A DNA stretch of 64,000 nucleotides from an uncultured Bacilli bacterium. GTDB taxonomy: Bacteria > Bacillota_I > Bacilli_A > RF39 > UBA660. Below are positions 7,274 through 49,353 of this stretch, piece by piece. The DNA lies in contig CANPXO010000002.1 in NCBI GenBank assembly GCA_947586205.1, forward strand, positions 397 to 64,396. The letters are read 5' to 3'. Under the pieces are notes generated by a model. That model saw only the letters and a list, made by a program, of their open reading frames with translations. It searched no databases and was not told where the DNA came from. The stretch's first letter is position 1; each line of letters opens with the position of its first letter. The position numbers and the translations under genes were made by a program.

Positions 7274-7870
7274 ATGAAGTGTGAGTCCTGTAAAAAGAAA
7301 AATATGCGAAAAGCAAATTATTGCAAGAAATGTGGAAGAAAGTTTACTGAGGAAGAAAAAGCAAATGCCAAAAAATCTGGTATTGATGTAATTCTAGAAG
7401 CTTATACCACAGTCAAAGATTTTATAACGCTTGATATATTTTTCGACAGTAAACTTGTGAAAGCTTTCTTTGTTCTTCTTGTTTTAGGAATAGGAATTTA
7501 TATGGTTTGCACTATGGGTTGGAATTTAAGAGTGTTACAAGGAGAAGACTACATTGTCAAATACAACCAAGAAATAGACACTTATTATGTTCTCATTGAT
7601 AATGAGCTTCAAGAAAAACCTCCCAAAGAAGAAGTAGATGTTTCAGTCTATGTTCCAAATCGAGTAGAAACATTAGATTTAGAATATTATGATGAATCAA
7701 ATAATCTATTAGAAACAGAAGAGCATGCTAAAGAAGACCGTTATACATTAACAGTAAACCTTAAAGAAAATAATTATTATATTCTTTCGAATCATGACAA
7801 GAAAGAAGAAAAAGTAAAAATATATGTGTATTATGTTGATTATGGTGAGGAAAATGAAAAAGAAGAATGA
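7274..7870 (+). CDS. zinc-ribbon membrane protein
   Basis: N-terminal CESC-x11-CKKC zinc-ribbon pattern, one TM segment (AFFVLLVLGIGIYMVC), then an acidic ectodomain. Confidence 0.6.
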   Translation: MKCESCKKKNMRKANYCKKCGRKFTEEEKANAKKSGIDVILEAYTTVKDFITLDIFFDSKLVKAFFVLLVLGIGIYMVCTMGWNLRVLQGEDYIVKYNQEIDTYYVLIDNELQEKPPKEEVDVSVYVPNRVETLDLEYYDESNNLLETEEHAKEDRYTLTVNLKENNYYILSNHDKKEEKVKIYVYYVDYGEENEKEE

Positions 7871-8864
7871 GAAATATATTTATTGTTGGAAATGCGGAGT
7901 AAAAAATGATAAGAAAAACAAAAAATGTGTTGCCTGTGATGCCAAATTAAACGAAGAAGAACATCCGTTGTTCACATGGCTATTCGGGGAAATCAAAGAG
8001 GAAGCAGAAGATGGAATTTTTGATTATTTTTGTGAATTATTAAAATCCTTTTTTAGAAAACATTTATATGGAGTAATTGTAGGCCTTGCCGTTACTTTTG
8101 CCGCGGTTTCCTCTGTAGTGAATATCATGGAACCAGAAAATGCTGAGATTACTACTGAAGAATATTCAATTCCAAAAGTTGTCGAAACTGTTCCAAAAGA
8201 GGAACCTAAGCAAGAAGAGGAAGTATCAAAAGAAGAAACACCAGTAGAACCACAGCCTGAAACTCCAAAACCTGCAGCAACTCCAAAGCCTACTACTCCA
8301 CAACCAACACCAACACCTGAACCTCAACCAAGTACTCCGGAACCTGAAGAAAAACCAAAAGAACTTTATTGCCCAACAGGGTTCACATTAACAAATGAAA
8401 ACAAATGTGTAATTACGGAATATTTAGATGCTTGGATAAAGTATACATGTCCAGAAGGGTATGAATATACTTCTAACGGCGATGATAAATATTGCCTTAG
8501 TACAACAAGAGAACCTATGGAAACTGAGTACTTCTGTGCAGCAAATATGGAAGAGTACAAAAAATATTATGGCGATAGTCTTTGTGCATCAATGTCTGAT
8601 GTTGTAACAAGCACTTTAGATAGTGTAAATCATAAATGTTCCTATTCATTCTTTTATGCAGATGGAAGTTCAGCATCATGTATACTCGGTACACCACCAG
8701 ATGCTTTAACAAGAAGAAGTTGCCCAGCAGGAACAATGAACAATGGTGATTATTGCTATAAAAAGACAGATTATGCCATTAAATATTATTGCTTAAATGA
8801 ACAAGAAGAATTAGTGGGAAATAAGTGCAAAACAACTACAATACTAGAGCCATTGGAAAGATAA
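7854..8864 (+). CDS. zinc-ribbon membrane protein with Pro/Thr-rich linker and Cys-rich ectodomain
   Basis: ATG at 7854 follows GGTGAGG and overlaps the previous stop. It has a CWKC-x11-CVAC ribbon, a TM segment, the linker PQPETPKPAATPKPTTPQPTPTPEPQPSTPEPEE, and repeated C-P-x-G-x(6-9)-C modules. Confidence 0.6.
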   Translation: MKKKNEKYIYCWKCGVKNDKKNKKCVACDAKLNEEEHPLFTWLFGEIKEEAEDGIFDYFCELLKSFFRKHLYGVIVGLAVTFAAVSSVVNIMEPENAEITTEEYSIPKVVETVPKEEPKQEEEVSKEETPVEPQPETPKPAATPKPTTPQPTPTPEPQPSTPEPEEKPKELYCPTGFTLTNENKCVITEYLDAWIKYTCPEGYEYTSNGDDKYCLSTTREPMETEYFCAANMEEYKKYYGDSLCASMSDVVTSTLDSVNHKCSYSFFYADGSSASCILGTPPDALTRRSCPAGTMNNGDYCYKKTDYAIKYYCLNEQEELVGNKCKTTTILEPLER

Positions 8865-41340: not shown

Positions 41341-41393
41341 AATAACTCAAACTCCTTTCTTGGGTTTATTTTATCATAGGATCCCTTAAAATG

Positions 41394-41650
41394 AAAAGAA
41401 AAAAGGAAAAAGGATAACCATTAAAACCTTTTTCCTGTAATAGCAAGACTGTCTTCTTAGAAAGGATATATATTTTACTATATGTCTTGCTAATGTATTC
41501 CAAGTGTAATAGAAAGAAGGGCGAAATACTAATGCTTAACAGAAGAAAAAATTTTTCCTTGGAATACGAGTGTATATTCTACAACAGGGGGTATGTCGAA
41601 ACTTGTCGAAAAAGCGCGAATTTATCAAAAAAATGCAAAAAAATTTAGAT
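41394..41650. repeat. copy 1 of a ~260-290 bp structured intergenic element
   Basis: In order it contains hairpin GGAAAAAGG..CCTTTTTCC, hairpin TAGCAAGAC..GTCTTGCTA, hairpin GTATTCCAAG..CTTGGAATAC, then the conserved tail gagtgtatattctacaacagg.ggtatgtcgaaa.ttgtcgaaaaa. Confidence 0.7.
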
Positions 41651-41855
41651 ATTTTCATTTTTTTGCATGAAAAAGTCATATTTGAAACAATAAATTCCAG
41701 AAAAAAGAGATATTCATGAATTTAAAAAAAGATTTTAGAAATCTTATTACAGGAAACTATTAATATGTAGACAAAAATTTAGTAATTGAAGAACTATTGG
41801 ATAAGGAAAATAAAGTTGTATTATATCCAAGGCCAAGAAGGATTATGCGATAAAA

Positions 41856-42150
41856 AAAGAAAAAGGCCGACTTGAAAACCTTTTTCATTTGCTAGCAAGA
41901 ATTGAGATACATAATTCATGACATATAAGAGGTAAGTAGAAAAATTAATCCTTAGAAACAAATGAGTGAATTCTTGCTAGGATGTATTCCAAGGGAAACA
42001 AAAGGTATCGACAACTAAATACAGGAAAACAGAAATTTTAATAAATCAAAAATTTTTCCTTGGAATACGAGTGTATATTCTACAACAGGTGGTATGTCGA
42101 AATTTGTCGAAAAAAGTCGAATCTGTCAAAAAAGTGAAAAAAATTTACAA
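41856..42150. repeat. copy 2 of the structured intergenic element (500 bp downstream of copy 1)
   Basis: Same order of elements as copy 1: GAAAAAGG..CCTTTTTC, CTAGCAAGAATT..GAATTCTTGCTAG, GTATTCCAAG..CTTGGAATAC. The 64-nt core matches 41550-41613 with only 2 substitutions and one extra A at its end. Confidence 0.7.
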
Positions 42151-42235
42151 AATTGTCTAAAAAACGAACCATGATACCATTTGACGACTCAAACAAAAGT
42201 ATAGTATAATAACAATTGAAACGAGGTGTTCTGGT

Positions 42236-42916
42236 GTGCTAGCATTCGGAAAAAATGTTCTTTATATGACAAATCCTAAACAAATTCAAAAAGTTTATGT
42301 GAGTAAAAATAAGAAAGATGAAGAATTATTTCACTTTTTAAAAGAAAACCATATCCATTATCTTTTGGTGGAGCCCAATATATTAGATAAAATGTGTAAA
42401 CAAAATCATCAAGGAATTGTTTTTGAAAGAAATGACTTTGAATATCAAACTTTGGATTCTTGTTTGGATGAAGACTTTGTGGTATTACTAGATCATTTAG
42501 AAGACCCTCATAACTTTGGAGCTATCATTCGTACTTGTGAAGCAGCTGGAGTAAAATCGGTGATTATTCCCAAAGATCGAAGTGTCGATGTGACAGATAC
42601 CGTGATTAAAACAAGTGTTGGAACCACAGAAAATATAAAAATCATTAAAGTCACCAATTTAGTAGATGCGATAAAAAAACTACAACAAAACAATTTCTTT
42701 GTTTATGCCTCAGCAATGGATGGAAAAGATATGAATCAGATGAGATTTCCAGACAAAAAAGTTTTGATTATTGGAAACGAAGGAAAAGGAGTGAGTCCTA
42801 TTGTTCGTAAAAATTCTGATGAAGTCATTTGTATTCCGATGAAGGGAGAGGTAAACAGCTTAAATGCTTCCGTGGCAGCGGGAATCCTTATATATAAAAT
42901 GGGAGGTCTTTCATGA
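42236..42916 (+). CDS. rlmB: TrmH/SpoU-family 23S rRNA 2'-O-methyltransferase (RlmB/YacO-like)
   Basis: GTG start after GAGGTG. SPOUT motifs LDHLEDPHNFGAIIRT, LIIGNEGKGVS, IPMKGEVNSLNASVAAGILIY. Synteny with the following sigH-like gene. Confidence 0.85.
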   Translation: MLAFGKNVLYMTNPKQIQKVYVSKNKKDEELFHFLKENHIHYLLVEPNILDKMCKQNHQGIVFERNDFEYQTLDSCLDEDFVVLLDHLEDPHNFGAIIRTCEAAGVKSVIIPKDRSVDVTDTVIKTSVGTTENIKIIKVTNLVDAIKKLQQNNFFVYASAMDGKDMNQMRFPDKKVLIIGNEGKGVSPIVRKNSDEVICIPMKGEVNSLNASVAAGILIYKMGGLS

Positions 42917-43521
42917 ATTACAATGAAGAAGATGATACGCTTCTTATGGATATGGTTTGTGAAACCAATGAAGAAGCAAGAGACTCTCTTTATGAAAAAT
43001 ATAAACCAATTATCGATATGACAGTCAAGAAATATGCTCTTACCGCGAGAAAGTTAGGATTAGATTTAAATGATTTAAATCAAGAAGCAAACGTTGGATT
43101 TACAGATGCGATGAATCATTATGATTCAAATAAAGAAGCTTCTTTTAAAACATTTATTCAAATCTGTATTGAAAGAAAAATCATTAATTATCTTAAAAAA
43201 CATAAATCAACAAAATACAAAACATTTCAAGAAAGCTTATCCCTAGATTATGAGTATGATGAAGGAAACTCTTTAAAGGAAACTTTAGCCGATATTTCAT
43301 CAGATCCATCTATAAAACTCAGCGATGCTGAAACCATGAAAATAATTCAAACAAAAATAAAACAGGAACTTTCTGATATTGAATATGAAGTTTTTCTGTA
43401 CATGTTAGATAATTTGAATTATAATGAAATTGCAAGAATACTTGACAAAAGTCCAAAACAAATAGATAATACTATGCAAAGAATTCGCATGAAGTTAATT
43501 CATATATTGAATGAGGAGTGA
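42913..43521 (+). CDS. sigH: sigma-70 family sigma factor, SigH-like
   Basis: Region 2 (LYEKYKPIIDMTVKKY..DLNQEANVGFTDAMNHYD..SFKTFIQICIERKIINYLK) and region 4 (YNEIARILDKSPKQIDNTMQRIRMKL). Its position after rlmB/yacO matches Bacillus. Confidence 0.7.
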   Translation: MNYNEEDDTLLMDMVCETNEEARDSLYEKYKPIIDMTVKKYALTARKLGLDLNDLNQEANVGFTDAMNHYDSNKEASFKTFIQICIERKIINYLKKHKSTKYKTFQESLSLDYEYDEGNSLKETLADISSDPSIKLSDAETMKIIQTKIKQELSDIEYEVFLYMLDNLNYNEIARILDKSPKQIDNTMQRIRMKLIHILNEE

Positions 43522-43527
43522 GTAAAA

Positions 43528-44190
43528 ATGAAAAAGAAAGAATGGATTCGTTTAGCTTTAGTTGTGGGAGTAGGGATACTTTTTGTAATCGTTTTACTTG
43601 GAGTGATGAGTTTTACTAGGAAAAGAGAAAATATTGATTATACAGAAGATCCTTCTGTACCTGAAGAAATTAAATTTACAAATGCAAGTGATATGACTGA
43701 AAGTGAAATAAGAGAATTAGTGGAAGAAAAAAGAATAAATTTAAAAAATTTCTTTCATGATGCTCAGTATTACAATATTGGTGACGTTTCTGAAGATCAT
43801 ACAAGTGAAGATAACGATGACTATATGGTTGTAAATGAAGATTTCTTAAATGAATTAAAAACTTTGTTATCTTCTAGAGCTTATGATGATTATTATCAAT
43901 ATATGGCAGAAATTGAAAAAAGAAGTGATATCAATATAAAAGGTACTTTGTATATGGCACCTCGTGATTTATTTGATCGAATTTATATTACAAGTGCAAT
44001 TCCAAGTTATGATGTATCAGAAGAGTATCTTATTTTAGAATCTGCTACAAACGAACGAATTAAAGCAAGAGAAAATATTAAATTATGTAATGATGAGGGA
44101 ATTTGTAGTCGAGATGATGTATATGAGCTTGATTTAGTGAAAGAGGAAGATACTTGGAAAGTTGATGAATTCTTAACATTAATAGATTAA
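43528..44190 (+). CDS. N-terminally anchored hypothetical protein
   Basis: One TM segment (IRLALVVGVGILFVIVLLGVMSF) followed by a soluble domain. No family recognised. Confidence 0.5.
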   Translation: MKKKEWIRLALVVGVGILFVIVLLGVMSFTRKRENIDYTEDPSVPEEIKFTNASDMTESEIRELVEEKRINLKNFFHDAQYYNIGDVSEDHTSEDNDDYMVVNEDFLNELKTLLSSRAYDDYYQYMAEIEKRSDINIKGTLYMAPRDLFDRIYITSAIPSYDVSEEYLILESATNERIKARENIKLCNDEGICSRDDVYELDLVKEEDTWKVDEFLTLID

Positions 44191-44267
44191 GAGAAGAAGT
44201 AAGGAACACTTATTTCTTTTTTTTAAAAGTTATGATAAAATCATGAATAGAGAAAAGAGAGTCGATT

Positions 44268-45770
44268 ATGAAAAAAATATGTATGGTAGTAATGGACGGA
44301 TTTGGCTACAGTGATAATAAATTAGGAAATGCTGTTATGATGGCGCCTCCAAGAAATTTTTTAAAACTGTGGGAAAAATATCCTCATTCCCTTCTAGAAG
44401 CAAGTGAAGAAGCAGTTGGATTAGAGCACGGACAATTTGGGAATAGTGAAGTTGGTCATATGACAATTGGAGCTGGAAGAAAAATAAAACAAAGTATTGC
44501 CTTACTAAGTGAATTTTTAGATGGTGCTCCAATGGAAAATGAGAATTTTTCTCAAATGATCAATTACTTAAAAGAAACTGGGAAAAGATTACATGTTATT
44601 GGTTTACTAAGTGATGGAAAAGTTCATTCCAGTTTTGATCATTTTATCAAATTGATTTCTGTCTTACAAAAAGAGGAAATTAAGAATGTTTCTTTTCATG
44701 CCATTAGTGATGGACGTGATACAGAAACAAAAGCTTTATATAACTATATTCATCCATTAGAAGAAAAACTAAATGAAACAAAAGTCGGAACAATTGCAAG
44801 TATCTGTGGAAGATATTATGCAATGGACCGTGATAAAAACTGGGATAGAACAAGAAAATATTATGAGTTATTAACAAGTGGAGTGGGAGTTTCAACTCCA
44901 AATATTCCTTTAATGATTCAAAAATGTTACGAAAAAAATATCACTGATGAGTTTATCCCACCTTTAAAAACGAAAGATTTTGTACCTATTCAAAATGGCG
45001 ATTGCATTCTTTGGATGAACTATCGTACAGACCGTGCGAAACAAATCATCAGTGCGTTTACAAATGAGACATTTGAAGAGTTTCATCGAATCAAAAAAGA
45101 AGTAGCCGTTTATTCTTTTCTTCCTATTGACCCCAAGATTAAAACTAACTTTTTTCTAGAAAGAGAAGAAGTCACCAATCCTTTAGGAGTTTATTTATCA
45201 AACTTAGGCCTTACCGAAGCAAGAATTGCTGAAACAGAGAAGTATGCCCATGTTACCTATTTCTTTGATGGAGAAAGTAACAGTTCGTTAGAAGGATGTC
45301 AAAAATTTTTAATTCCATCTCCGAAAGTAGCTACCTATGATTTAAAACCAGAGATGAGCGCGATTGATGTGACAAAAAAAGTCATTCAATGTATGGAAAA
45401 AGATTATGATTTCATCCTAGTCAATTACGCCAATCCTGATATGGTCGGACATACGGGTGTTTTAGATGCTGCCGTGAAAGCTTGTATTACAGTAGATTTC
45501 TGTGTGAATGTGTTAGCCGAGAAAGCCGAAGAAAATTTCTATACCTTAGTGATTCTAGCCGATCACGGGAATGCTGACCAAATGATTGATGAAAAGGGTG
45601 AGCCTGTCACAACCCATACATTAAGTAAAGTACCATTCATCATCACAGACCAAAAAATAAAACTAGAAGAAAAAGGTGATTTAACAAACGTTGCACCTAC
45701 AGTTCTAGATTATATGGAAATTGCTGTTCCAAAAGAGATGCGTGAAACAAAAAGCTTAATCATAAAATAG
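44268..45770 (+). CDS. gpmI: 2,3-bisphosphoglycerate-independent phosphoglycerate mutase
   Basis: MVMDGFGYS, NSEVGHMTIGAGR, LLSDGKVHSS, ISDGRDT, NYANPDMVGHTG, LADHGNAD. About 500 aa. Confidence 0.93.
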   Translation: MKKICMVVMDGFGYSDNKLGNAVMMAPPRNFLKLWEKYPHSLLEASEEAVGLEHGQFGNSEVGHMTIGAGRKIKQSIALLSEFLDGAPMENENFSQMINYLKETGKRLHVIGLLSDGKVHSSFDHFIKLISVLQKEEIKNVSFHAISDGRDTETKALYNYIHPLEEKLNETKVGTIASICGRYYAMDRDKNWDRTRKYYELLTSGVGVSTPNIPLMIQKCYEKNITDEFIPPLKTKDFVPIQNGDCILWMNYRTDRAKQIISAFTNETFEEFHRIKKEVAVYSFLPIDPKIKTNFFLEREEVTNPLGVYLSNLGLTEARIAETEKYAHVTYFFDGESNSSLEGCQKFLIPSPKVATYDLKPEMSAIDVTKKVIQCMEKDYDFILVNYANPDMVGHTGVLDAAVKACITVDFCVNVLAEKAEENFYTLVILADHGNADQMIDEKGEPVTTHTLSKVPFIITDQKIKLEEKGDLTNVAPTVLDYMEIAVPKEMRETKSLIIK

Positions 45771-45836
45771 CAAAAAAAGATTTACAATGTCAAAACTATA
45801 GATTAAAATAGTAGGAAAAAATGGAGGAAAAAATAA

Positions 45837-47570
45837 ATGATAAATTATGAAGAATTAGAGAAACAATTAACGCGGGTAAATGAAGAATGTTATTCTTTTT
45901 TTGAAGAAATTTTAAATGACTATTACAAATATATTGTCGTATTAGATACAAAAACATTAAATTTGTTAAATCTTTATAAAGAGATTCTGTTAAATCAAGG
46001 AAAAATAAAGGAAGCAGAAGTACCAATTATTTTAACAAAAAATGCTTGGTATGCAAAGGCAAAAGAATATGCAGATGAATTACGACAATATAAAGAAATA
46101 CGTATTCCGACATTAATTATTGAAGAAGATATTTCTTTTGGAGATGAAGTAAAAGCTTTATTAGAAACTATGAATGAAAAAGTACAGAAAAATATTCCAG
46201 ACGTAGAAGCAAAACCAGATGTGCGTTTTATGTATAATTCTCCCCTTTTAATAGTCAAATCTATTTATATGTCTCGGCATGAAGGTAAAACAATACCTCC
46301 GTCATATCTTTCTACTTATCAACGCTTGAAATATAAAGTTAAGTACGCAGATAAACCTTATAATATGTTTTACGGTGCTGTAACAAGGTTACTTACTTTA
46401 GGAAGAGACGGAATTGTTTCACAAATTTCAAATTCAACTACATTTTCTATTGATAAAAAAGATGTAGAAGTCTTAGATAAAAATTTTATTTCTATTAAAA
46501 ATCCTCATTTTCATGACTCTATTTGGGTAAAAGAAATAAACGGTAGTATGGGTACAATTGGCTTTGAAACTCTTTATGGAGTGGAGGCAAAAAATGATAG
46601 GATAACAATGACTCCCTTTACTTTTTTTAGTGAAATTACTATGGATAAAAATAAAATGATTTCTGCTTTTAGTCAATTTTATTATGGATTAAAAGAAAAA
46701 GTAGAACAAGAATTACAAGATGAAAATAAAAAAGATTTACTAGTTGATTTATTATGTTTTTTGTTTAATCAAAATTTAATGTTACTTTTAAAAGAAAAAG
46801 TAGAACTTCATGATATAGATTATACTTTTTTGAGAGCTCAATACGAACCTATTTCATTTATGAAACAAATAGAAGAAAAAAATCAACCATGGATGTCTTT
46901 TGAAAATATGGAAAAAATGATAAGAGAGATTGTGAGCAGCAACTTATGTGAAAGGGAAAACATTACTGTAAATAATGGGAATATTAATTCCTCAGTTTTA
47001 GAAAAAATTGAAGATAAAATGTATTTACAAATTTGCAAAACAGAATTGATGAGAGCAAAAGTATATAAAAATGAACATTGGGAATGTCCAAGACCAGATC
47101 CATTAAAGGAAGAATTTTTAGAAAATAAAGAAAATATCCTAGAAGTTTTATATGTTCTTTTAAGATATATGAATTTGGGAGTATTAGAAACAAATATTCG
47201 AAAAAAAGAAAATGATAAATATGTAACATCTTATATATGGCCATCAGAATCTATTTTATTAAAACCAATAAGATATGGAAAGTATTTGCAAGTGTTGGAA
47301 TTTATTGCAAATGATTGGTATGGATTTGGTGACGAGGATATCGCAGAGAGGATAAATCGAGGCTTAAAGAAATTTTTTGATTCACCTGATGAAAAAGAAA
47401 TATTAGAAAAATTACAGGAATATGTAAGGGAAGTACATACAATGGGTCATAGTCTTAGGGAACTCAACAATCCTGAAATGATGTTTTTTGATTTGGAAAA
47501 TCAACAAGATACTATGCAAGGTGATATCATTTTAATGAGACGTTATATCGACAGATGTCATGAATGGTAA
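45837..47570 (+). CDS. hypothetical protein (577 aa) on an inserted segment; weak PRTase-like N-terminal signature
   Basis: ATG after GGAGGA. Own promoter TTTACA-17-TAAAAT (45781-45809). The N-terminal strings IVVLDTKTLNLLNLYKEIL and IPTLIIEEDISFGDEVKALL resemble a phosphoribosyltransferase fold loop. The rest is unrecognised. Confidence 0.6.
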   Translation: MINYEELEKQLTRVNEECYSFFEEILNDYYKYIVVLDTKTLNLLNLYKEILLNQGKIKEAEVPIILTKNAWYAKAKEYADELRQYKEIRIPTLIIEEDISFGDEVKALLETMNEKVQKNIPDVEAKPDVRFMYNSPLLIVKSIYMSRHEGKTIPPSYLSTYQRLKYKVKYADKPYNMFYGAVTRLLTLGRDGIVSQISNSTTFSIDKKDVEVLDKNFISIKNPHFHDSIWVKEINGSMGTIGFETLYGVEAKNDRITMTPFTFFSEITMDKNKMISAFSQFYYGLKEKVEQELQDENKKDLLVDLLCFLFNQNLMLLLKEKVELHDIDYTFLRAQYEPISFMKQIEEKNQPWMSFENMEKMIREIVSSNLCERENITVNNGNINSSVLEKIEDKMYLQICKTELMRAKVYKNEHWECPRPDPLKEEFLENKENILEVLYVLLRYMNLGVLETNIRKKENDKYVTSYIWPSESILLKPIRYGKYLQVLEFIANDWYGFGDEDIAERINRGLKKFFDSPDEKEILEKLQEYVREVHTMGHSLRELNNPEMMFFDLENQQDTMQGDIILMRRYIDRCHEW

Positions 47571-47588
47571 AAAGTATTTGATGACATC

Positions 47589-47666
47589 GCACCTACTGTA
47601 CTTGACTATATGGAAATTGCTGTTCCAAAAGAAATGCGTGAAACCAAAAGCTTAATCATAAAATAG
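47589..47666 (+). pseudogene. orphan second copy of the gpmI 3' end (last 25 codons + stop)
   Basis: It encodes APTVLDYMEIAVPKEMRETKSLIIK*, identical to the gpmI C-terminus at 45693-45770. It differs at 6 synonymous third positions. It has no start codon and lies directly after the stop of the 577-aa ORF. Confidence 0.8.
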
Positions 47667-47693
47667 CATAGGGATAAAAAGCGAAAAAAGTGG

Positions 47694-47722
47694 TTTACAA
47701 TCCTAGCAACTTATGCTAAAAT
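47694..47722 (+). promoter_or_regulatory. rpsF operon promoter TTTACA-17-TGcTAAAAT
   Basis: Hexamers are at 47694-99 and 47717-22. The -35 box and flank (gatttacaat / ggtttacaat) are duplicated at 45779-45788. Confidence 0.55.
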
Positions 47723-47800
47723 AATCGCGAGTAATGAAATTTACTCCTTGCTTTTTCTGAAAAATGAGAAAGCCATTAGACCATAAGGAGGTGTAAAAAA

Positions 47801-48091
47801 ATGAACAATTATGAAATTATGTTTATTGTAAAAGCAACAATGGAAAGCGGAGACGTAAAGAAAACTGCAGAAGGTTATAAAAAATTAGTTTCTGACTTAA
47901 AAGGTAAAGTTGCTGAGTACAAAGAACTTGGTGAAAAGAAATTTGCCTATCCAATCAAAAAAGAAATGAATGGATACTATTTTGTTATGCAAGTAGAAGC
48001 TGACAAAGATTGCATTGGTGAATTTGACCGTAAAATTCGTTTAGATGAAAACGTTTTAAGACATTTAATTATTCGTAAAGAAAGAGAGTAA
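47801..48091 (+). CDS. rpsF: 30S ribosomal protein S6
   Basis: MNNYEIMFIVKA... is typical of S6. rpsF-ssb-rpsR operon order. Confidence 0.95.
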   Translation: MNNYEIMFIVKATMESGDVKKTAEGYKKLVSDLKGKVAEYKELGEKKFAYPIKKEMNGYYFVMQVEADKDCIGEFDRKIRLDENVLRHLIIRKERE

Positions 48092-48094
48092 CAT

Positions 48095-48574
48095 ATGAAT
48101 AAGGTAATTTTAATTGGAAGATTAACAAGGGATCCAGAACTACGTACAACGGGAAGTGGAATGTCAGTCACTAGATTTTCTGTAGCCATTAACCGTCCGA
48201 CGAGTTCTCAAAACGGTGGACAACCTCAAACAGATTTCATTAACTGTGTCGCTTGGGCAAGACAAGCTGAGAATATTGCAAAATATTGTACTAAGGGCTC
48301 TCAAGTCGCTGTAGATGGAAGAATTCAAACAGGATCTTATACAGGACAAGATGGACAAAAGCATTATACAACCGATGTTGTCGCTTTAAATGTCACATTC
48401 TTAGGAAGCCGTAGTTCACAAGATGGAAGTTCTGCTGGAGGAAGTACGAGTTATTCTCAACCTATGCCAACTTATGATGAACCACAAGATTTACCAACAA
48501 CCGATATTACAGAAAATATTTTTAATGATTTTGGAAATGAAGTCGCATTAACGGATGATGACTTACCATTCTAA
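48095..48574 (+). CDS. ssb: single-stranded DNA-binding protein
   Basis: OB-fold N-terminus MNKVILIGRLTRDPELR, Gly/Ser/Gln-rich linker, and acidic tip DDDLPF. Confidence 0.95.
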   Translation: MNKVILIGRLTRDPELRTTGSGMSVTRFSVAINRPTSSQNGGQPQTDFINCVAWARQAENIAKYCTKGSQVAVDGRIQTGSYTGQDGQKHYTTDVVALNVTFLGSRSSQDGSSAGGSTSYSQPMPTYDEPQDLPTTDITENIFNDFGNEVALTDDDLPF

Positions 48575-48596
48575 GTGAGAAAGGAGAGAGTAGTTT

Positions 48597-48812
48597 ATGC
48601 CAGAATTTAGAAGAAAAAAGAAAAAAATTTGTCAAATGTGTGCTGGAAAAAGCGTTGATTATAAAGATGTTATGATTATCAATAAATATATTAGTGAAAA
48701 AGGTAAAATTTTACCTAGACGTATGACTGGTGCATGTGCAAGACATCAAAGACATATTGCTGAACAAGTTAAATATGCAAGATTTATGGGATTTATTCCA
48801 TTTGTAAAATAG
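48597..48812 (+). CDS. rpsR: 30S ribosomal protein S18
   Basis: KKICQMCAGKSVDYKDV..ISEKGKILPRRMTG.CARHQR is the S18 signature. Confidence 0.95.
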   Translation: MPEFRRKKKKICQMCAGKSVDYKDVMIINKYISEKGKILPRRMTGACARHQRHIAEQVKYARFMGFIPFVK

Positions 48813-48904
48813 ATGCTTTGAAAAAGTGTCTTTTTTATTTTGTACAGTATATACGAATTCTAAAATTTTTGATATAATAAATTCACTTAAAGGAGGTTTA
48901 AGAA

Positions 48905-49345
48905 ATGAAAGTCATTTTATTAAAAGATGTAAAAGGGCAAGGGAAAAAAGACCAAATTATTGATGTCAGTGATGGATATGCAAATAACTTTTTAATTAAA
49001 AAAGGTTTAGCCGTTCCAGAAACAAAACGAAGTAAAGAAGTTTTAGACAAAGAACTTTTAAATCGTCATTTAGAAGAAGAAGAAAAAGTAAGTGACCTTA
49101 CCAAAATGAAAGAAAATATCTTAAAAGAACATCTAGAGTTTCATGTAAAAACTGGAAAAGAAGATAAAGTTTTTGGAGTGATATCTAGTAAACAAATTAG
49201 TGATGAACTAAAAAAATTAGGATATAACATTGATAAAAAATGTATTCAATTAGACCATCCGATAGATACGTTAGGAGTTCATGAAGTGAGCATTGAATTA
49301 CATAAAAGAGTTCAATTTAAAATAAAGATAACAGTAAAGAAGTAG
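48905..49345 (+). CDS. rplI: 50S ribosomal protein L9
   Basis: MKVILLKDVKGQGKKDQIIDVSDGYANNFLIKKGLA is the L9 N-domain. Confidence 0.95.
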   Translation: MKVILLKDVKGQGKKDQIIDVSDGYANNFLIKKGLAVPETKRSKEVLDKELLNRHLEEEEKVSDLTKMKENILKEHLEFHVKTGKEDKVFGVISSKQISDELKKLGYNIDKKCIQLDHPIDTLGVHEVSIELHKRVQFKIKITVKK

Positions 49346-49353
49346 GTGAAAAT

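Follow-up and report, generated by a model that had tools for sequence, protein, structure and literature searches.

Homology-facilitated illegitimate recombination (HFIR), in which one homologous anchor is combined with one illegitimate join, and the single-crossover integration of a circularised fragment have both been shown experimentally, in E. coli conjugation (PMC3240628). HFIR has also been described in Streptococcus pneumoniae, Acinetobacter and Pseudomonas stutzeri, in primary work as cited in PMC5361080, and displacement by this process was proposed to explain the orphan 3' fragments and orphan immunity genes that follow Rhs, contact-dependent growth inhibition (CDI) or type VI secretion system (T6SS) effector loci (PMC5361080). 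The 3' ends of protein-coding or tRNA genes also harbor the attL/attR sites that belong to integrative and conjugative elements (ICEs), integrative and mobilizable elements (IMEs), prophages and cis-mobilizable elements (CIMEs) (PMC5704250). Here we describe a locus that invites comparison with all of these systems, located in a 64,000-nucleotide stretch of DNA from an uncultured Bacilli bacterium (assembly GCA_947586205.1, contig CANPXO010000002.1, positions 397 to 64,396; hereafter the window). In this locus, a single gene of 577 codons, which we call x577, lies between gpmI and the rpsF operon and is bracketed by two copies of the gpmI 3' end. On balance we consider it probable, if only modestly so, that this arrangement is the scar of a single homology-anchored, partly illegitimate recombination event, and that the resulting block was later shared between sister lineages, with no active mobile element being involved.

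The window derives from a rabbit-gut lineage of Bacilli whose nearest representative in GTDB is CANRDF01 (Lapin-026 bin92; GpmI 97% identical). From left to right, the locus reads gpmI, x577, the repeated gpmI 3' terminus and rpsF-ssb-rpsR-rplI-dnaB. By its Pfam matches, gpmI encodes the 2,3-bisphosphoglycerate-independent phosphoglycerate mutase (iPGM), and its product is 97% identical to that encoded on contig L008, a member of a sister lineage, and 70-83% identical to those of other metagenome-assembled genomes (MAGs) of Bacilli from the rabbit, chicken and human gut. An earlier note on this DNA, made from the letters alone, had placed exactly one long open reading frame (ORF) between the two copies, and this is what we find. 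The features of the locus are as follows, with coordinates referring to the window:

44268-45770, plus strand: gpmI (iPGM), intact, 500 aa, with Pfam matches to Metalloenzyme (1.9e-67) and iPGM_N (3.9e-64); its last 83 nt belong to repeat copy 1.
45688-45772, plus strand: direct repeat copy 1, made up of the 3' end of the functional gpmI, its stop codon and 2 nt beyond; 85 nt, 91% identity.
45781-45809, plus strand: promoter-like TTTACA-17-TAAAAT upstream of x577, read from the sequence, with a GGAGG ribosome-binding site at 45823-45827.
45837-47570, plus strand: x577, a 577-aa ORF of 27% GC under purifying selection (ratio of non-synonymous to synonymous divergence, dN/dS, 0.32), belonging to no profile family.
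47571-47583, plus strand: junction spacer of 13 nt between the x577 stop codon and the orphan, presumed to hold the illegitimate join; gpmI homology starts at 47584.
47584-47668, plus strand: direct repeat copy 2, an orphan gpmI 3' fragment (pseudogene), delimited by the repeat finder.
47669-47683, plus strand: 15 nt without counterpart after the functional gpmI in the alignment, probably the original gpmI-rpsF spacer.
47684-47800, plus strand: rpsF promoter (TTTACA-17-TAAAAT at 47694-47722) and conserved leader, conserved in contigs L011, L093 and L096.
47801-49345, plus strand: rpsF-ssb-rpsR-rplI, which together with x577 form a low-divergence block shared with the L008 lineage (synonymous divergence, dS, 0.03-0.09).

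As reconstructed below, the locus resembles products of HFIR in that it would combine one homologous anchor with one illegitimate join, place foreign DNA beside the anchor gene, involve no dedicated recombinase, and retain the resident DNA past the join; it differs in that the event at gpmI is read from a natural genome only. The likeness to the Rhs, CDI and T6SS orphans lies in an incoming module anchored in a conserved upstream gene, with the old 3' end displaced downstream. In contrast to those loci, however, the anchor here is a housekeeping glycolytic gene and not a polymorphic toxin, and there is a single displacement with no array and no evident toxin-immunity logic.

The evidence begins with the repeat itself. 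A repeat finder returned a single strong direct repeat (45688-45772 and 47584-47668; 85 nt, 91% identical, 1896 nt from start to start), and its 80-nt core gave E = 4e-28 (blastn-short). The downstream copy, hereafter the orphan, comprises the last 28 codons of gpmI. The note had reported that the last 25 codons and the stop codon of gpmI (45693-45770) recur at 47589-47666 with six purely synonymous differences, and both statements are exact: the two copies encode APTVLDYMEIAVPKEMRETKSLIIK*, and the 78 coding nucleotides differ at six positions, all of them third positions and all synonymous. The left 5 nt of the repeat hold two further differences (ACGTT versus ACATC), of which one is non-synonymous (V to I). 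Were substitutions random, six of six synonymous changes would arise with a P of about 1e-4, and the four orphan-specific sites alone with a P of about 0.003. The repeat ends 2 nt past the stop codon on its right side. On its left, the weaker similarity that had been noticed upstream (LTNVAPT versus FDDIAPT) is not real, as local alignment of the 40 nt left of each copy gave a chance result (P = 0.44), which confirms the left boundary, and GpmI of every relative reads LT[NEQ]VAPT; gpmI homology begins at 47584. No other gpmI remnant, which might have signaled a relocation of gpmI, was found in the 64-kb window.

The pattern of divergence suggests that the orphan is an allele and not a neutral duplicate. 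Its nearest counterparts are gpmI ends from its own species complex: it differs from those of the window, L001 and L008 at 9 positions in 86 nt and from those of other relatives at 20-28, while the functional ends of the window and L008 themselves differ at 6 positions in 86 nt, a distance similar to that of the orphan. At several sites the orphan states (ACT, GTA, GAA, ACC) are present in outgroups as well, which leaves no more than 2-3 changes attributable to the orphan lineage. By our own arithmetic from the alignment counts, about 7 of about 17 synonymous sites differ between the functional ends and the orphan; we estimate that a neutral fragment of equal age would carry about 20 or more changes, mostly non-synonymous. 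Since the orphan has far fewer changes than this expectation and its differences are synonymous, it appears to have been a working gpmI end until recently, and to belong to an allele lineage other than that of the functional end now beside x577. The earlier proposal that the two copies evolved as functional sequences in different lineages is thus upheld, and the data support divergence of both copies under coding constraint, followed by the juxtaposition of two gpmI alleles from different lineages. A mosaic or gene-conversion origin for the clustering of differences on the left of the repeat was considered and rejected, as the codons concerned are four-fold degenerate and vary between functional alleles too. 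At present the orphan is a decaying gpmI pseudogene, because two of its three haplotypes carry a 17-nt frameshifting deletion, one in L001 and the other in L008, L088 and L108, where a 3-nt deletion just downstream is found as well. The window haplotype is intact, and its V-to-I change falls in the first complete codon.

Searches for exact matches to the x577, RpsF, RpsR and GpmI proteins yielded about 25 contigs from ENA and Logan samples. In every contig of the species complex with enough upstream sequence, x577 is present at the identical junction, and the junction of the window recurs in >14 independent ENA, Logan and NCBI assemblies; because of this recurrence, the structure is no assembly artefact. 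There are two exceptions, L096 and L093, in which homology to the window stops exactly at 47684. In L096 (Logan DRR848886, 996 nt), an x577-like ORF leads directly into the rpsF promoter and no gpmI fragment intervenes, whereas in L093 unrelated non-coding DNA lies upstream of the same promoter. L093 is either a recombinant lineage or a chimeric assembly of low coverage (about 2); over positions 1-1647 it encodes an RpsF identical to that of the window and an RpsR identical to that of L011, preceded by a different upstream region. None of the contigs carrying the same GpmI, RpsF or RpsR has an empty site, and a scan of genome collections for one returned only relatives with a different gene order. 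The earlier note had advised comparing the junction across relatives in search of empty alleles, and had regarded universal carriage of the same gene and duplicated flank as the mark of a fixed rearrangement; by that standard the insertion seems to have reached fixation in the species complex as sampled.

A further line of evidence comes from gene-wise dS between the window and the L008/L088 lineage, the sister lineages being about 93% identical at the DNA level. In the left flank, dS is 0.61 for rlmB, 0.71 for sigH, 0.57 for up220 and 0.36 for gpmI, and in the right flank it is 0.38 for dnaB and 0.37 for a LysM/M23 gene. Within the block, rpsR has a dS of 0.03, rpsF of 0.04 and ssb of 0.08, and both rplI and x577 have 0.09, with a value of zero over the last 470 nt of x577. 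Synonymous divergence in this 3.5-kb block (45800-49350) is 4-10 times below that of both flanks, and the pooled counts of synonymous differences (46/605 sites in the block versus 428/1294 in the flanks) give a Fisher P of 1e-37. Codon bias could lower dS in the ribosomal genes but not in x577, and up220, which serves as a control matched in GC content (28% versus 27% for x577), has a dS of 0.57. Because dS drops from 0.36-0.71 in the flanks to 0.03-0.09, the segment from the gpmI end to the rplI/dnaB boundary (about 45.8-49.35 kb) must have been exchanged by homologous recombination after the lineages split. A single accessory gene and the adjacent ribosomal-protein operon can thus pass together between lineages that are about 7% diverged.

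The two borders of x577 differ in what they reveal. At its 3' border, x577 is in frame with the orphan and has its stop codon 18 nt ahead of 47589, as had been observed. A read-through fusion of x577 and the orphan was considered and discarded, as two sequences share a frame by coincidence one time in three, and in haplotypes with the 17-nt deletion the frame is lost. HMMER searches of 1.84 billion representative proteins recovered one full-length relative of x577, P0003 (595 aa, 23% identity, E 1e-22), and one partial relative, P0004 (651 aa), whose similarity is confined to the C-terminal region; the x577-like ORF of L096 is 48% identical over 136 aa and has a longer C-terminal tail. In the alignment, the L096 protein, P0003 and P0004 all extend 13-30 residues past the position of W577, the residue at which homology to the L096 allele stops. 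With three relatives longer by 13-30 residues and the orphan only 13 nt away, the data fit a break inside the 3' end of x577, which would have lost its last roughly 13 or more codons to an illegitimate join. Beyond the orphan, the 15 nt without match after the repeat are followed by the conserved rpsF promoter, and for this reason the orphan, spacer and promoter look like the intact original gpmI-rpsF junction. No terminator was predicted between x577 and rpsF.

At the 5' border, the promoter-like site upstream of x577 raises the question of how far homology once extended. The motif TTTACA-N17-TAAAAT is found only at 45781 and 47694 in the 64-kb window (0.13 occurrences expected), and both sites consist of an A-tract, then TTTACAAT, 15 nt and TAAAATA, a combination unique in the window. 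Local alignment of the regions downstream of the two repeat copies scores modestly above shuffled sequences (P = 0.016). The 15-nt promoter spacers, however, match at 4/15 positions, which is chance level (P = 0.006 if they are as old as the coding repeat), and comparison of the two promoter regions requires a 17-nt indel between the stop codon and the A-tract. Shared ancestry of the two promoters is therefore possible, and of the earlier claims about them the identity of the boxes stands, while capture of the rpsF-operon promoter by the insert is unproven. Downstream of the rpsF promoter, the 26-mer GAAAGCCATTAGACCATAAGGAGGTG is exactly conserved in L099 (5308-5333) and L100 (1405-1430), even though the RpsF proteins encoded there are only 36% identical to that of the window. 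This conservation suggests that window positions 47723-47800 form a regulatory leader overlapping the ribosome-binding site; neither the leader nor the orphan region matched an Rfam family.

The simplest account of this geometry is a single event. The donor DNA would have come from a sister lineage and would have contained all of gpmI or only its 3' part, with the promoter and x577, broken inside the x577 3' end, and the recipient would have had gpmI directly upstream of the rpsF promoter. The presumed empty junction would thus have read as an orphan-type gpmI allele, then CATAGGGATAAAAAGCG, then the rpsF promoter. Homologous recombination in or upstream of gpmI would have resolved one end of the incoming DNA, and an illegitimate join at codon 472 of the resident gpmI the other, as in HFIR; an equivalent route would be the circularisation of a 1,896-nt fragment by end-joining, followed by a single crossover in the 85-nt homology. 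Either way, an intact gpmI 3' end would come to lie beside an x577 gene short of its last roughly 13 or more codons, and the last 28 codons of the resident gpmI would be displaced and kept as the orphan on the original spacer and rpsF promoter. Subsequently, the segment x577-orphan-rpsF-ssb-rpsR-rplI would have spread between sister lineages by homologous recombination, with gpmI and dnaB as flanks, and decay of the orphan would be the last step.

This proposal has parts of two kinds. The repeat, the coding-type divergence of its copies, the fixed and identical junction, the decay of the orphan, the younger age of the block and the lack of recombinase genes nearby are features of the DNA as it stands, whereas the order of events, the identity of the resident copy and the way in which the DNA was taken up are inferred. 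The homologous anchor carries allele-type, coding-constrained polymorphism relative to the displaced copy (6/6 differences synonymous). Precomputed Pfam matches, covering about 20 kb (about 9 kb on the upstream side of the site and 10 kb on the downstream side), revealed no integrase or transposase, which bears out the earlier statement to this effect over that distance, and the repeat finder detected no inverted repeats at the ends of the insert. The presumed illegitimate join can be narrowed to 47571-47583, an interval in which microhomology is readable only with the donor sequence. Acquisition of one gpmI end together with the insert, facilitated by homology, had been offered in the earlier note as one of two routes, and we regard it as the best explanation in view of the juxtaposed alleles and of a block younger than its flanks (dS 0.09 for x577 versus 0.36-0.71). 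Such an event is ordinary, a recombination scar of an already known kind that calls for no new mechanism. Its value would lie in providing a clean natural case, beside a housekeeping gene, in which a foreign gene was fixed through one-sided homology and left a dated scar. For annotation, positions 47584-47668 are best labeled as a gpmI pseudogene remnant, neither a gene nor an att site.

Whether the gpmI 3' flank is used more widely can be judged from relatives. Accessory and defense-gene hotspots between conserved core genes exchange their cargo via flanking homology, and the region after gpmI shares this character. L011, whose GpmI is 77% identical, has an unrelated 192-aa ORF between gpmI and rpsF; it retains the promoter and leader of rpsF and lacks a duplicated gpmI end. 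L009 and L010 have prepilin-like genes after gpmI. In relatives at 70-73% GpmI identity, pcrA is found downstream of gpmI, either directly (L012, L018), or after a 212-aa ORF and an AbiEii toxin (L019, L020), or after a 143-aa ORF and a split AAA_21/AAA_15 ATPase (L017). As relatives hold different cargo at this position, the 3' flank of gpmI has repeatedly received small cassettes, of which x577, the AbiEii toxin-antitoxin, the AAA_21 ATPase and the 192-aa ORF are examples, and the exchange of the x577 block between lineages adds to the likeness with hotspots. The difference is that x577 matches no defense-system model, the only hints coming from its relatives P0003 (a match to PDC-M11B) and P0004 (beside an RdrB-like deaminase). 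The hotspot suspected in the earlier note is accordingly borne out as regards variable genes in the slot but not as regards the duplicated gene end, for a second gpmI end was absent from 15/15 relatives tested, which carry other cargo or none after gpmI. Nor was an integrase found after gpmI among the downstream ORFs listed for relatives (pcrA, AbiEii, AAA ATPase, helix-turn-helix protein, pilin-like), ten of which were scanned against Pfam.

Gene order around gpmI varies as well. In L015 (119-3685) the order is gpmI-rlmB-sigH-226aa-nusG, with nusG being our assignment from the N-terminal sequence alone, as compared with rlmB-sigH-220aa-gpmI at 42236-45770 of the window. Given that the surrounding gene order is permuted between relatives, gpmI appears to lie at a rearrangement-prone boundary in this clade. 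Within the ribosomal-protein operon, L011 has an ORF of 457 aa on the minus strand between rpsR and rplI (7419-8792), whose sole match is a weak one to TPR, and the same ORF is probably present in L093; the window has no such insert, and no duplications flank the insertion in L011.

x577 is a real gene under selection, as its dN/dS of 0.32 indicates, but its sequence offers few clues to function. Profile searches against Pfam and NCBIfam gave no match, PADLOC none at E <= 1, and PHROGs only two at chance level (E 0.037 and 0.085). Sequence searches of the PDB with an alignment of the x577 family and with P0004 had no match, nor did tblastn of x577 against collections of phages and plasmids, IMG/VR and metagenomes from JGI, and a protein search with the 170-aa L096 fragment aimed at recovering its full locus was also without result. 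Among 5.8 billion clustered proteins x577 falls only in the cluster of its own species, and the family is very sparse, besides being unannotated. An AlphaFold2 model built from a 4-sequence alignment was unusable (mean confidence score, pLDDT, 36.8). A beta-alpha-beta region near the N-terminus (LIIEEDISFGDE; ILLMDEILLHGRT in P0004) was entertained as a phosphoribosyltransferase PRPP loop, a likeness at the level of a motif that no profile supported, and this candidate was dropped.

The neighborhoods of the x577 relatives are more suggestive. P0003 follows genes for Ku, a LigD-like ligase and an AAA_14/DUF4143 protein in another rabbit-gut genome and gives a weak match to PDC-M11B in PADLOC (8.8e-5, 21 bits). 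P0004 precedes a 950-aa ORF and then a 924-aa RdrB-like adenosine deaminase (PADLOC RdrB 4.9e-29). The two loci lie in unrelated surroundings, and neither has duplicated gene ends in its flanks. These contexts do no more than hint at a defense-type neighborhood, and a role for x577 as an accessory defense-type protein is a guess that we make with low confidence; annotated as a selected orphan family, x577 would be worth a structural or defense screen. In the P0004 contig (L111, 861-8629), the 950-aa ORF has no family match and is not recognized as RdrA, although with the RdrB-like deaminase it forms a RADAR-like pair. Separately, three independent assemblies of P0003-type carriers end <=40 nt past the stop codon of that gene (L097 8206-8245, L098 7351-7368, L110 9788-9828), and a repeat or strain-variable region probably starts just after it.

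Several points weigh against a homology-anchored event. Neither a donor nor an empty recipient site was found, so that the event can be checked neither for its direction nor for microhomology where the ends were joined. The same geometry would be left equally by a site-specific element carrying a replacement gene end, and a repeat that ends 2 nt past a stop codon is also typical of an attP mimicking a gene end. The identical and otherwise unique promoter boxes hint that homology may once have extended further than simple HFIR needs. With regard to DNA uptake, a regular-expression scan for prepilin-type N-terminal motifs in six frames of the window had no hits, and no search aimed at competence genes was made.

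The site-specific alternative takes the form of a decayed integrative element, such that an ICE, IME or prophage that had targeted the gpmI 3' end persists as a CIME-like remnant, in which the repeat copies are attL and attR and deletion of the integrase and the rest of the element left x577 behind. Direct repeats of a target gene 3' end, with the gene kept intact by a replacement end and the native end orphaned, are the classic signature of such elements, and the locus displays it. CIMEs by definition lack integration and transfer genes while retaining attL and attR (PMC5704250), an element-borne gene end is expected to show coding-type divergence, and other small cassettes do occupy the gpmI 3' flank in relatives. 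Yet there is no integrase within about 9-10 kb on either side, and in no relative is the gpmI end duplicated or gpmI followed directly by an integrase; the cargo consists of one gene; and no contig of the species shows an empty attB, other cargo within the same repeat, or any sign that the insert excises or that the site is used recurrently with this repeat. In addition, x577 is apparently truncated 13 nt from the orphan, which would be surprising with an attR arm in between. A CIME-like origin is thus unlikely in our judgment, though far from negligible. An element that is still active, or mobile cargo as the earlier note had suggested, is unsupported, there being no recombinase, no empty site, no second gpmI end in relatives, and a decaying orphan. 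Similarly, a transposon or insertion sequence was rejected for want of a transposase profile match and terminal inverted repeats, and on account of a repeat that is 85 nt long and 9% diverged.

Duplication of the gpmI end in place, perhaps with the promoter, combined with an independent insertion of x577 and partial homogenisation of the copies by gene conversion, would account for the identical promoter boxes found nowhere else in the window, and perhaps for the polymorphic states that the orphan shares with functional alleles (GTC and ACC with that of L008, GAA with that of L001), which may reflect conversion. It is nevertheless improbable, as it needs two events instead of one, the promoter spacers are identical only at the level of chance (4/15), and a neutral orphan should by our estimate carry about 20 or more changes where 2-3 are seen. 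Alternatively, x577 might itself be an unrecognized recombinase or homing-type enzyme, making the insert a minimal mobile element of 1.9 kb and one gene, with the gpmI 3' end as its target and a recoded version of that end as part of its load. The exact bracketing of a single gene of no recognizable family by the repeat, four consecutive synonymous changes beside the left boundary, and the breaking of all P0003-carrying contigs within 40 nt after that gene would suit such an element. Against it, no nuclease or recombinase motif or profile match was detected, including the homing nuclease domains LAGLIDADG, GIY-YIG, HNH and PD-(D/E)XK (searched via Pfam, NCBIfam, PHROG and PDB sequences). P0003 and P0004, moreover, sit in unrelated neighborhoods without duplicated gene-end flanks, the L096 allele adjoins rpsF without a repeat, and the locus has one insertion site only, no empty site and a decaying orphan; we give this idea hardly any credence. 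A broader speculation, itself very improbable, is that x577 founds an accessory family, possibly defensive or selfish, that moves as single-gene cassettes into the 3' flanks of core genes without a known recombinase, the recoded gene end being the signature of insertion or x577 catalyzing the process.

Finally, a second repeat-bearing region is found upstream in the window, where an ORF-free spacer of about 900 nt (41341-42235) separates a Band_7 gene on the minus strand from a SpoU-type methylase gene. This spacer contains a tandem duplication of about 500 nt with a core 110-nt repeat (41547-41656 and 42048-42157, 86% identity) and further conserved blocks, including hairpin-like GCTAGCAAGA...TCTTGCTAG segments, and it is conserved in L008. 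No Rfam family matched it even at E <= 1, and the spacer may represent a duplicated leader or a non-coding RNA.

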